Shown here in pieces: positions 36,201-45,200 of a DNA stretch of 64,000 bases. This DNA is from Bispira polyomma (lineage: Eukaryota). Location: assembly GCA_965649765.1 (NCBI GenBank), contig OZ287759.1, positions 10,912,001 to 10,976,000 on the forward strand, in the 5' to 3' direction. The translations under genes were made by a program, and so were the position numbers. Numbering within the stretch: position 1 is the stretch's first letter; each line of letters starts with the position of its first letter. The notes beneath the pieces are model-generated. The model had not been told where the DNA came from, made no database searches, and saw only the letters and a program-made list of their open reading frames with translations.

Positions 36201-39200
36201 CAACATACCCTTAGTAAAAAAAAAGTCACCCAAATTTGGAACTCTGAATCCTTGTGATGATAAACCACAGACCTGTCCTGATGTGAAGGCTGATTGACTG
36301 TTAACTCTTTCTGAAGGATTCTTTTTAAACGAGGAAAGATTTATGTAATGCTATACTCGGTATTATTACTGTACAAACCTCCCGTAAAATATTTTGGAAG
36401 CATGGTGAATAATACGTTAATAACACAAAAGTAGGATCTTGTTGTCTCCCATAGCGTAGTAGTTCTAGAGTTGGTCTGGTGATCAGATGGTCCCAGGTTC
36501 AACTCCCAGTTAGGAGGGTAGGTCTGGTGATGATCGGAAGGTTTGTGCATACAAAAATTTATAGCAGTCTGCATTTTGCACGGAATGTACATTGGTGAAA
36601 GTTTGATCTGTATGTCATTGTTTAAGCTAAACATTTTATACTTTTATATCCTGATAGATCAAGTGATATACTGTACTGTCCTTAGGAAATTAAAAAAAAA
36701 TGACAGGAAGGCACTAATCCTAGATTTTAACGTACTGTGTATTGTCTTCCAACCACCCTGAAACAGATAGGAGGTTTAGTATGCATACACACCCACTGAT
36801 GTATGGTTGAACCACTCTGAATTTGCAGGACACAAACTAGCAAAAATAGAAGAACTGGCAACTATTGCCTATATTTTTAGAATTTGACAACAATATGCAG
36901 TAAAATTTGTCCGCAATTGAACTCCCATATTCTTGGGATGGTACAAAAATGGCGTTGACAAAAGCACTGTTAATTTATTAATATTAATATTACCAACACA
37001 GCTAGCCACTACAGTTCACTCGTGGTCTCTTTTTGTGATAAAAACTGTCCATGTGTTGGAGGCGCATGCGCAGTAACCTGGTTTCTTGCATCGGCAACAG
37101 AGTACTTGTTCTAGCTTTACCTACAGTTCACTGAATACTTGTTTAATGTCTGTGTCTGGTAAAGGTGTGACGATTAGTTAAGATAACGATGCATCAATTC
37201 CTTTTGACAAATATAGCCTCTTCAACTCAAAGACTTCAAGAAAACGTATAAATAAAATTGTAACTTTATCTTCATCTTACACTTCAATTTGAAGTTATTG
37301 GGTGTATTAAGCTTCCTAGACAAATCCTTATAGTGACAAAAACACAGACCTGTACAGAAATCACATGACTGACAGATTTGTTACACACACTGAGTGATTT
37401 GACTTTATAGACTTGAACTTGAAAAAGGGACAAAGTGGGAAAATTCTTTGTTAAAACCTAAACTAATTAAATGTAATCGTATCGAGGCTTTGCGACTCGA
37501 TCATGTATATTTTACTCCCTGTTGGTCGAATTTTAATACCAACCAAAAAGCACGTTAACGTCTGAGACAAATATAAATGATTAGATACATAAAATTGTAA
37601 CATTATGAGGTTCTTGGACATGTGACAATGTTTATAGTAGGTGTGAAACGGTCATCAAAAAGGCGGCCCAAATAATCGCTAGTATCTAACCGTATTGAAA
37701 CCGGGTACCTGCAAATTTGGTATGCACTAATCTTAAAAACCAGTCTAACAAAATGACGGCTGATGTAAAAGTCTATTGAAAAACAAAGGCAAATATCTGG
37801 GGGAATATTGTAAATAAGAAGGAAGATGTATGTTGGGAGCCGGAATTAGACCAAAGTTATTGTTTTGATAAGTGAATTAGGATTATAAGCGATAATGTAA
37901 TATTTTTACTACAAAACATATACCTTTTCGAGTCCCTGAATAGCAACTTTCACTCCAGTTTCCCCACAAATATGACCCGTTGTGGAGTAACCTAGTTTAT
38001 GGGGAAATGTATTATGGTCTGGCAATATATATTGACCTCGTCACACGGCAGTTATAGTATGTATGTACAGTGATTTAGGCTACCTTGTCAAATCCTTATG
38101 ATGACAAAAACACAGACCTGTACAGAAATCACATGACTGACAGATTTGTTACACACACTGAGGGATTTGACTTCAAAGAGTAGAACTTGAAAAAGGGACA
38201 AAGTAGGCAAATTCTTTGTTAAAACCAAACTAATCCAATCTAAATTCTACTGTGGAAAATGAAACAAAATAGTCAAGTTTAGGTATACATCAGTTTAAAT
38301 TGGTTTTTCATCGAGTTTGTGTGGGCGATAATTAATGTAAATGACATATTCAGACTCACGGCCTTTAGTTTAGGGTTTAGTTCTAATTTTAGGTATCTAT
38401 TATAAACATTTTCCCTCATAGTTTCTAATATTTACAAAGATAGTTGTCATTTTGTCTTTGTAAATATCTATTCTTACATTTTATACTAACATTATGGGTC
38501 CCTGGATTGTAGACAGTGCTCACACAGGCAATATTTGTTGGGTCCATCACATATCTCTTATATTATGTATTTAGGGTACCAGTGCACACTGGGTGTGCCA
38601 CATTTTGTTTTAGACAAAGATATCGATCACTGCCCTGAAGTGTTTGGAACCACCGGTTAGCGATAATATTGATATTTTACATCTAAATGCATATCCTATT
38701 TCTTTAAAACATTGAAAATATATGTAAGTTTAACAATATAAGAAACAAAATAGCATACTTCTACAGATTTTGTGTGTATGAGTTTTAACAGTTTTAGAGA
38801 TCGCATTTCCTGTTGAAAGTTATATCTCGTGTACACACCTGTTATAAGTTTTGCAACAAAACCGGGACTTGAAATGATATGTACCAGATGTTCTGACACC
38901 GGTTTTGCTTTTTGCAAGCGATTACAGCACTAATGTAGTGTGTATTATGGCAAATCCTTATGATGACAAAAACACAGACCTGTACAGAAATCGCATGACT
39001 GACAGATTTGTTACACACACTGAGGGATTTGATTCTATAGAGAACTTTGAAAAATGGACAAAGCGGGAAAATTCTTTTAAAGTCTAAACTAATTCAATCT
39101 ATTCCGGGCTTTGCAACTCGATCATGTATATTTTACTTACTGTTAGCTGAATTTTAGTATGCTCCCCTAAAGTACAGTCACCAAGGAAAAATATAAATAT

Positions 39201-42200: not shown

Positions 42201-45200
42201 ATTTAATGACGTTTGAGGATGTTTATAGGGCTCTAACAGGGTGCCCAGTTGCTGAAGAATAGACTCAAATTATTTGAAAACCATAGTGAAACTATTGATT
42301 CAGATAGTCGAAAATGGCTGTAATTATATGTATGCACTATGTAGGGTGTACTATTATACATTTAATTTAAGCTGTCCTTATCCTTATGATGACAAAAACA
42401 CAGACCTGTACAGAAATTACATGACTGACAGATTTGTTACACACACTGAGGGATTTGACTTTTTGGACTAGAACTTGAAAAAGGGACAAATCAAGCAGAG
42501 TCTTTGTTGAAACCCAAACTGATCTAATCTTTGTAATGATCAAAGTAACAGTGATATGTATTAAATCATAATGATACTGGAGTTTAGAAGTATAAATTAC
42601 TGGGGAAAAGAAAATGTTGGGAATTTGAATACCAGAAATTGTAATGCGACATCACAGATTTACTTAGTTGCAGCAGGATTGGTAAATATTGGATGATTTT
42701 CTGCATCCGATGTCTTCACGTTATGCAAACATAAAAAGACTGCCGTGTGTGTGTGGGGATTGATCAATTACCCAGCCTGTAAAAATCATTATCTTTGACA
42801 CTGATGGTGATGTTGGATTACTACAGTACACAAACTTGAGACGCCATATATTTAATAAATATGGTCATGTTTAAATTTCTATACTTTAACAGTGTTAACT
42901 TACTTCAAGCTTCAGTAGTAAAACAGTCTAAAGGCAAAAAGAGAAATGGGCTGCAGCACTCACGGCTTCTGGTGGGGGTTAGTGAGTGGACGATTCGACC
43001 AACGTCTAAGCCTTCATCGGTCTATTAGCCAAAAGACGTCGATCGGTAAAGATCATCAGAAAATCGATCATTACAAACCCAAAACACGGCAAAGTTTTGA
43101 ACTTCAACTAAAAGATTTGTTGACCTTTTCATGTGATTTAAGATTGTTTTTAAGTCAAATAAAGCAATTTTTGTTACTTTTATATTTGTTTTCGTTTTCC
43201 TCCATTGTTTACCAGAAGTCATATAGGTTAGCGGTTGATACTAAATGTCGAACGTTTGAATTTAACCAAATTTTACCGGATCACAATATTTTCGAACCGG
43301 GATAGCAGGATGGGTAACTTAACAATAAAAAAAGATATATTTAGGTAAATAATCAATTGGAGGTTAATCATCGGACGGACAATAAAGCAATTAATCGACT
43401 TGCAAAATACAGACCACTTTCACTGACTAGCTGTGGTCTCATTTGGCGAGCAATTCCTTTGTTTGTTCACAGCCCTGCTGTTAACGTATGTTTGACATCA
43501 AATCCTTATGATGACAAAAACACAGACCTGTACAGAAATCACATGATTGACAGATTTGTTACACACACTGAGGGATTTGATTTTAGACACAAGTTGACAG
43601 TTTCAAGTAGTGTTGTTAACAATATGCCGCTGTATTAGTTTCTTATGCGTCTCATATTCCTCAAAACCCTCAAATATTTATAGCTTTTACAACATACAAA
43701 ACAACTATTATGTGCAGGGGGGCTCAACATTATAAAAAAACTTTTGAGATGGCATTTCCTGTTGACATTTCCAAGTAGTAAATAAATTCACATTTCATAG
43801 TGGAAAGGTATTTTTCTGTAAACAGTATTATACATGTAATAGGTATATTAGATAGAAATTTGGTAGAGAGTGTAATTTGTGTTAATAAGTCTAACAGTCG
43901 CACTATAGAAGTTTGGATACTAGAGGTTCTACTGTATAGTGATGAGTAAAGCGGTGACGATTAGTTAAGAAATTGATTTATCAGTTTGACTGTGACAAAT
44001 GTAGCGATATGCATCGAATCCAGGCTTTATGACTCAATCATGTATATTTTACTCCTTATTGGACAAATTTTAGTGTGTTGCCCAAAAGCACATTGTTGTC
44101 CAGGAAAAGTTTAATTAATTAGGTAGATATACTTGTAACGTTTGTGTTTGTCTTACATAAGTTATACCATGGGGAAAATATAAAAAAATAGTTTGAGATT
44201 AGGTATGTATCAGCACTATTATGTAGTTAAAATTGGGTTTCCCATGTGGGCGATAATCAATGCAAATTAAATACTACCCGACTCACAGCTTTAATATTAT
44301 GGGTTAATCAGAGACTTTATGATAACAAAGACAGACCTGTCCAGAAGTACATGCTTTTGATTGTCTTACACACACTGAAAGACTCTGGCCCACAGAAGTA
44401 GCTTTGGGTACAGCAGGCCATATTTTAAGAATGTATATGTGATTTGTATGGTTTTAACCCTTTTGAGACTGGGAGACTAGTGTTCCTATGAACTAAAGGA
44501 ACAGTTGCAGATGGCCAGAGTTCCCAAAGACACGCACCAAAAATGATTTGTGGCATTTTATAATGGCTTTGTTTATAAAATTCTAAATTCTATTACTATA
44601 ACATGTTGAAAATGTGCAAAACCTTAGAAAATAAAATTATAAATCTGGGTGTGGACTACTTGCATTCCAATGAATAACAAACTCTGTAAACTGCTTAACA
44701 GCAATATACAGTCGAACCCTTTTGAGTAGAACTCGATTTGCTTTTTATTTGGAGCAAATTCTGTAGTCCCCAATGGTCCTTACCTTGTTAAGATCTACCC
44801 TGTTAAGTGGAGATCCTGCTTCAGTAAATGTATCTATCTTTGTCCCTTTTACTTTGACTTAGCTAGGGGTGGTTAAATGATTCCACTCAGTGTTGATAGT
44901 GGAACCACTCTCAAATAACAATCCTTTATTGTAATTAGTTGGTCAATAAGTGGTTGTAATTGGTGGGTAAATTAGTGGTTGTAATTAGTGGGTAAATTAG
45001 TGATTGTAATTAGTGGGTAAATTAGTGGTTGATGGAAATTGTTATCAAATGCAAAATTACTTCCACTATCGGTCGATATCGGGACATAGGAAGAGAACTG
45101 AAACGTATCTTCAAAGCGAAAAAGATTTTCCGAGAAAGAGAAAGCGAACAAAACCGGAAGTAAAAACCGCTAAATATGTTTAAAAGTGAAATGGATTAAA

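Follow-up and report, generated by a model that had tools for sequence, protein, structure and literature searches.

What does a small nucleolar RNA (snoRNA) guide when it combines a familiar 18S guide with a second antisense element of its own? The question is raised by a 64,000-nucleotide (nt) stretch of Bispira polyomma DNA (contig OZ287759.1, positions 10,912,001 to 10,976,000; the window hereafter), in which one intron carries nine copies of a U25-like C/D-box snoRNA. An exact-match search (0 mismatches) finds the D guide, TTGTTACACAC, at 37378, 38146, 39008, 40724, 41325, 42434 and 43556 in the window. A-CTGA follows it directly on the 3’ side in all seven copies, and a C box and the guide CACAGACCTGT lie 5’ of each. 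This agrees with an earlier note on this DNA, which had described guide-A-CTGA as invariant in seven copies and partly kept in copy 9; the latter retains TTACACACA-CTGA at 44366-44378, giving eight contiguous pairs with helix 44 (H44) of 28S ribosomal RNA (rRNA).

We read the series, with a probability of about 80%, as a tandemly duplicated intronic double-guide C/D snoRNA, likely expressed from the pre-mRNA of ATP5B (ATP synthase beta) and predicted to methylate 18S G1439 and 28S U1467. What is observed are the boxes, the terminal stem, the duplexes with the species’ own rRNA, the host intron, conservation above that of the flanks and identity with a plant guide. The snoRNA would be released from the ATP5B intron and assembled into a small nucleolar ribonucleoprotein, in which fibrillarin would carry out 2’-O-methylation at the two D+5 positions, 18S G1439 (the universal U25/snR56 site) and 28S U1467 (the plant Um1278 site).

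Pairing with the species’ own rRNA

The ribosomal DNA (rDNA) of the same genome carries the target 20-mer GGAGTGTGTAACAACTCACC 241 times, and a reversed control gives 0 matches. In the rDNA unit used (L005), 18S, 5.8S and 28S were placed by Rfam, the 28S at L005 3496-7186. The D guide pairs with 28S 1464-1474 at 11/11 Watson-Crick positions, abutting a canonical D box, and its D+5 base is 28S U1467. The D’ guide CACAGACCTGT pairs with 18S 1436-1446 (L005 2202-2212), again at 11/11 positions and abutting the D’ box, and its D+5 base is 18S G1439, the U25-type site. Sought as antisense elements of at least 10 nt abutting D and D’, the duplexes with the own rRNA are thus 11 base pairs (bp) long at each box. 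The earlier note had proposed a double guide for an 18S Gm and a 28S Um, the latter at the D+5 U in H44; both duplexes are found in the own rRNA, the target base is confirmed as U1467, and the two marks are predicted. When the 16 nt upstream of box D were shuffled, 101 of 50,000 shuffles reached a duplex of at least 11 bp abutting the box, and none of the 425 other CTGA sites in the window gives such an abutting 11-bp duplex.

In the Rfam large-subunit alignment the target U pairs with an A and closes the GUAACA hexaloop of H44, after the nine-base loop of helix 43 (H43). The papers cited here by accession were each available in part, and statements drawn from them, above all those on absent marks or guides, refer to those parts. 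H43 and H44 are the main part of the GTPase-associated centre (PMC2952862), and in bacteria their loops, 1065-1073 and 1093-1098, are joined by a triple of C1072, C1092 and G1099 (PMC8614978). Counted by loop position, the target U corresponds to bacterial 1092 and the triple would here be U-U-A; a methyl group at this base would stiffen the H43/H44 fold and would not touch the factors directly.

Two further observations concern the same regions. At 38140-38151, partly within the D guide, lies ACAGATTTGTTA, a sequence similar to the D’ guide that pairs with that guide’s 18S site (12 bp, two of them G-U); judged from sequence, the H44 guide might go back to a duplication of the U25 guide inside the RNA and not to descent from a plant-type guide. 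At L005 4946-4955, adjoining the plant Am1263 site, the own 28S reads GAACCCGC where the Rfam consensus is gaAUCCGC.

The copies and their host intron

The host gene lies on the plus strand. Its upstream exons match the Pfam families ATP-synt_ab_N and ATP-synt_ab, and the penultimate coding exon (35326..35429, +), recognised from its translation (...ILN), is followed by a GT donor at 35430. The last coding exon (45421..45521, +; ...ELGS stop) was read from the sequence. Between them, the last ATP5B intron (35430..45420, +; 9,991 nt, GTGAGT...polypyrimidine-TAG) holds all nine window copies on its sense strand.

Copy 3 (38098..38161, +) serves as the reference, with the C box at 38098-38104, the D’ guide at 38111-38121, a CAGA D’ box at 38123-38126, a C’-like box at 38133-38139, the D guide at 38146-38156, the D box at 38158-38161 and a terminal stem of 10 bp. 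The double guide is equally intact in copy 4 (38960..39023, D guide 39008-39018), copy 5 (40676..40739, D guide 40724-40734), copy 6 (41277..41340, D guide 41325-41335), copy 7 (42386..42449, D guide 42434-42444) and copy 8 (43508..43571, D guide 43556-43566), all on the plus strand. Copy 2 (37330..37393, +; D guide 37378-37388) also has both guides intact and is likely impaired, its C box reading ATAGTGA, which lacks the GA required for the kink-turn. The two end copies are diverged: copy 1 (36254..36314, +) has a U25-type D’ guide and a canonical CTGA D’ box and lacks the H44 guide, no target in the own rRNA being found for its D-side sequence, and copy 9 (44319..44378, +) has the C box ATGATAA, a 10-bp U25 guide and the 8-bp remnant of the H44 guide.

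A tenth copy, the eighth of the near-identical ones, lies outside the window at G000:C12:2,943,925, about 8 Mb away, on the sense strand of a PSMD11/Rpn6 intron (L006 4934-4997), with both guides intact and a canonical C box. This copy directly follows a tandem repeat of about 2.8 kb, and its 5’ flank is like those of copies 3 and 5. A C box of the form RUGAUGA is present near the 5’ end in copies 1 and 3-8 and in the PSMD11 copy, not in copy 2 or 9; six of the seven exact-guide window copies have intact boxes, copy 2 being the exception. All copies have a CTGA D box, with terminal stems of 5-10 bp, and the D’ box is CAGA (CTGA in copy 1); the C’-like ATGAYTG is degenerate and was assigned by inspection. 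No strong splice acceptor lies within 400 nt downstream of copies 2-9.

The exact D guide has 10 matches in the genome (reversed control, 3), 8 of which stand in snoRNA context and are this family. The other 2, together with 3 matches to the D’ guide and 2 to the third element described below, have no C/D context, and neither the remainder of the window nor L006-L008 yielded a further C/D guide. Among sequencing runs, no RNA set was listed that contains the copies. Three DNA contig sets join copies to unique flanks; they come from one study, may be the source sample and are not independent.

Other features of the window are a SINE-like repeat (short interspersed element) of very high copy number, estimated from depth, at 39366-39600, inside the snoRNA intron, and at 50174-50400, which by its appearance we take to be tRNA-derived; exons of a guanylate-binding-protein gene at 1459-9189, one tested exon of which has a single match, Lingula GBP1 at 58%; and, on the minus strand at 55804-57964, two near-identical reading frames in tandem, presumably reverse transcriptase with GIY-YIG (Penelope-like).

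The H44 site in plants, published maps and other genomes

Rfam at its gathering threshold gives 0 matches in the window. The best match below threshold is the plant snoR11/Z151 (RF00349; 35.3 bits against a cut-off of 50), with a consensus that has this guide at its end. UUGUUACACACACUGA stands at the end of AtsnoR22-1, which has been assigned to Um1278 (PMC8583080), and a second study mapped U1278 and assigned it to SnoR22 (PMC8053127), so that Um1278 is a site mapped by RiboMeth-seq in Arabidopsis. The window guide with its D box is identical to that of Arabidopsis snoR22 at 16/16 bases and in the same register. Um1278 lies in H44 and has equivalents in tomato (Um1279) and Pyrococcus (Cm1233) (PMC11542601). 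Target switches between guides are documented and include the snR56 clan (PMC5824354).

The published maps of 2’-O-methylated nucleotides (Nm) of human, Xenopus, zebrafish, fly, yeast and Dictyostelium lack the mark. No Nm is mapped at the site in tobacco, human, yeast or Ostreococcus in the available part of PMC11542601; the aligned positions fly 1483, human 2006, yeast 1267 and Dictyostelium 1502 are unmarked and Xenopus is blank (PMC11014333 Table S4); no site lies between A1858 and C2338 in zebrafish, where no SNORD is assigned either (PMC7668251); and the H44 U is not among the four 28S marks that Xenopus has and human lacks (PMC8797249). The available parts of PMC8817022, PMC13542104 and PMC13487219 have no bearing on the H44 site. 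A literature search, with part of the literature out of reach, returned no report of a mark at the H44 U in any animal and no C. elegans Nm map.

These maps bear on the possibility that the guide binds H44 without methylating it, as a silent guide or as a folding aid in ribosome assembly. Plausible guides that go unused have precedent (zebrafish SNORDX; PMC8522698), and the animal Nm maps compared do not show the mark. However, the register, length and sequence equal those of a plant guide whose target is methylated, and the sources compared record no such guide in the mapped animals either. We regard silent binding as rather improbable, and continue with methylation of U1467 as the predicted outcome.

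The combined U25+H44 double-guide pattern gave 0 matches in metagenomes. A metagenome scan with a C box plus the H44 guide gave 67 loci, some of which overlap on one contig, with 38 distinct bodies between them; the plant Am1263 guide is present in 49/67 of these loci and absent in 18/67, and the U25 guide is present in 0/67. Eleven of the 18 loci lacking the Am1263 guide were translated for host context. Eight loci (L013, L014, L016, L023, L027, L055, L072 and L075) make up one multi-copy family that combines the H44 guide with another 5’ half; five of them were assigned by likeness only, and L013 and L014 are one contig. For L013 and L023 the host introns belong to a cadherin-repeat gene, with one copy per intron and three copies in successive L013 introns. 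L029 lies in a UBA52 intron, where the best eL40 matches rank first by small margins; from the entry codes of these matches we take the locus to be animal. L064 lies in a CYP3-like intron, and L025, on a protist-like contig, carries a tandem pair of H44-guide copies within a single intron of a CobW-family gene. L009, L017 and L037 are unplaced. L011, L019 and L061 (L068 has the same body) were rejected as chance matches that fall in or at long bacterial reading frames.

As a separate observation, the D+5 base of the L029 D’ guide is A1440 in the own 28S, by offset the tomato Am1252 site, and this guide is predicted to direct a second GTPase-centre mark in an animal. In the B. polyomma genome, guides for neighbouring H43 sites gave 0, 3 and 4 pattern matches, none with a C box in view, and no Am1263-type guide was found in snoRNA context.

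As far as sequence comparison goes, the H44 guide is found repeatedly among animals, each time next to another 5’ half; its distribution is patchy, and descent and convergence are indistinguishable here. It is a module that has other partner guides in other lineages and is here combined with U25. Of the claims made earlier, that of an unmethylated human 28S agrees with the maps, as it does for Xenopus, zebrafish, fly, yeast and Dictyostelium. The survey of Nm maps that had been proposed is positive for plants (Um1278 and tomato Um1279) and negative for fly and zebrafish, its worm part falling away with no map found. The idea of a lineage-restricted Um arising as a local novelty has to be given up: the guide is patchily distributed, because the site is the mapped plant Um1278 (snoR22) and other animal-type genomes carry this guide as well. 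Both the second guide and its site had been described in plants, and what the sources searched do not contain is an occurrence in animals and the U25+H44 combination.

Reviews call the ribose methylations of the GTPase centre Arabidopsis-specific (PMC8351944, PMC11542601), the former stating that these marks ‘seem to be unique for A. thaliana’. The view arose because the mapped animal models lack these marks. That one invertebrate has this guide under constraint, and that three further animal-type loci carry it, suggests that Arabidopsis-specificity is a sampling effect, and the H44 U mark is likely more widespread than the reviews hold. The locus yields a single testable nucleotide in an animal ribosome and is a clear case of guide shuffling, in which one H44 guide is attached to no fewer than four distinct 5’ halves; the mechanism as such does not depart from ordinary snoRNA biology.

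Constraint, copy number and a third antisense element

The units arose by DNA duplication, and their flank repeats are 60-94% identical. The eight near-identical bodies are identical at 60-64 of 64 positions; 7/64 columns vary, none of them in either guide. In the homologous 3’ flanks (five alignable copies) 25/63 columns vary, and at this flank rate the probability of 11 invariant bases is about 0.004. For both guides together against the rest of the body, P = 0.043. Selection on the RNA is clear, and selection on the D guide specifically would rest more on the cross-kingdom match.

Several points weigh against a working double guide. The conservation of the D guide alone does not significantly exceed that of the remaining RNA body (P = 0.25), gene conversion may contribute to the invariance of the guides, and copy 2 retains the D guide although its C box is broken. 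The usual pattern is one snoRNA per intron, and two in one intron can give a snoRNA-related long non-coding RNA (sno-lncRNA) (PMC11028025); nine copies apparently sharing one intron depart from this norm, release of the inner copies is not assured, and the diverged end copies could cap a sno-lncRNA. For the zebrafish SNORDX at least three rRNA targets are plausible, and none of them is methylated (PMC7668251), and tobacco has no mapped Nm at the H44 site (PMC11542601). Finally, the metagenome pattern also matches long bacterial frames by chance (L011, L019, L061).

Some of this evidence would fit a D guide that is a passenger, a chance match spread by duplication and conversion of U25 copies: its conservation relative to the rest of the body (P = 0.25), its presence in the box-broken copy 2 and its loss in copies 1 and 9. 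Such a match would have had to arise at a chance of about 0.2%, to be identical at 16/16 bases and in register with a proven plant guide, and to recur in other animals with other partners. We therefore consider a passenger highly improbable, and keep to the double guide.

That the amplification may serve the H44 guide, as suggested earlier, finds no support in the copies: both diverged end copies retain the U25 guide, and the H44 guide is missing in one and shortened in the other. Selection for a higher dose of the H44 guide would be compatible with a double-guide snoRNA; the family is the only exact source of this guide found in the genome, and another animal-type genome holds several H44-guide copies, including the three in successive L013 cadherin introns. 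Yet the U25 guide is found in 10/10 copies against 8/10 for the full H44 guide, and the nine-member zebrafish SNORD52 double-guide family, with its mixed guide loss, is a precedent for such a history. Selection for dose is unlikely in our view, and the copy number is most likely the product of ordinary birth-and-death duplication.

A third antisense element, CAGAAATCACAT (38123..38134 and the equivalent positions of the other copies, +), pairs at 12/12 positions with 28S 2451-2462 and overlaps the D’ box and spacer. The pairing is 12/12 in six of the eight near-identical copies, and the two variants keep G-U pairs; at least 12 pairs are reached by 79/5,000 whole-RNA shuffles (p about 0.015) and by 58/4,346 genomic 66-mers. 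These figures could be taken to indicate a third working guide, or an extra pairing site, on 28S 2451-2462, and if the ATGA or CTGA/TTGA behind it took the role of the D’ box, the element would predict Um2457 or Gm2453. However, it was noticed post hoc, overlaps the D’ and C’ boxes with no good C’ partner downstream, and is missing in copies 1 and 9 as well as in every one of the 67 metagenome loci. Any transition at an A or a C leaves a G-U pair in any case, and the plant and zebrafish tables have no Nm near the equivalent position, equivalence being by inferred numbering. A third function is accordingly unlikely. Slightly less likely still is the widest scenario, in which H43/H44 ribose methylation would be ancient (archaea, plants, protists and several invertebrate lineages) and lost in vertebrates, flies and yeast, and would here be directed by a three-target snoRNA in a nine-copy, one-intron polycistron linking 18S, the GTPase centre and 28S domain IV.

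Comparison with known systems

Arabidopsis snoR22, Rfam snoR11 (R11/Z151, RF00349), the guide of 25S Am1263 and Um1278, has the same D guide and D box (16 nt), and both RNAs address the same target U in H44 in the same register. They differ in the D’ guide, which in snoR22 is directed to Am1263, 15 nt upstream in the same rRNA region, and in the window snoRNA to 18S.

With SNORD25 (U25), yeast snR56 and plant snoR19, the guides of 18S Gm1490, the window snoRNA shares the 18S site, to which its D’ guide CACAGACCTGT pairs at 11/11 positions, and the Gm1490 mark is present in all six species of the fly table. These relatives differ in their other half: the second guide of plant snoR19 is directed to 18S Um1448 and Dictyostelium CD1 has other targets, and no described second guide of U25, snR56, snoR19 or CD1 was found to pair with H44 in the available parts of the sources compared. 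The window snoRNA falls below the Rfam cut-offs of both families, with 28.7/54 bits for snR56 and 17.6/50 bits for snoU25.

The zebrafish SNORD52/SNORD202 family (FP101887) also has nine related copies, some of which keep one guide only, and it combines a conserved D’ guide with a D guide not found in other vertebrates (PMC7668251). It has other targets, its host is a non-coding gene with its own exon-intron structure and its methylation was measured, whereas that of the window family is predicted. Intronic snoRNA clusters and sno-lncRNAs likewise place several snoRNAs in one intron (PMC11028025); the window differs from them in that its nine C/D copies all belong to one family and lie within a 10-kb intron whose host gene codes for a protein.

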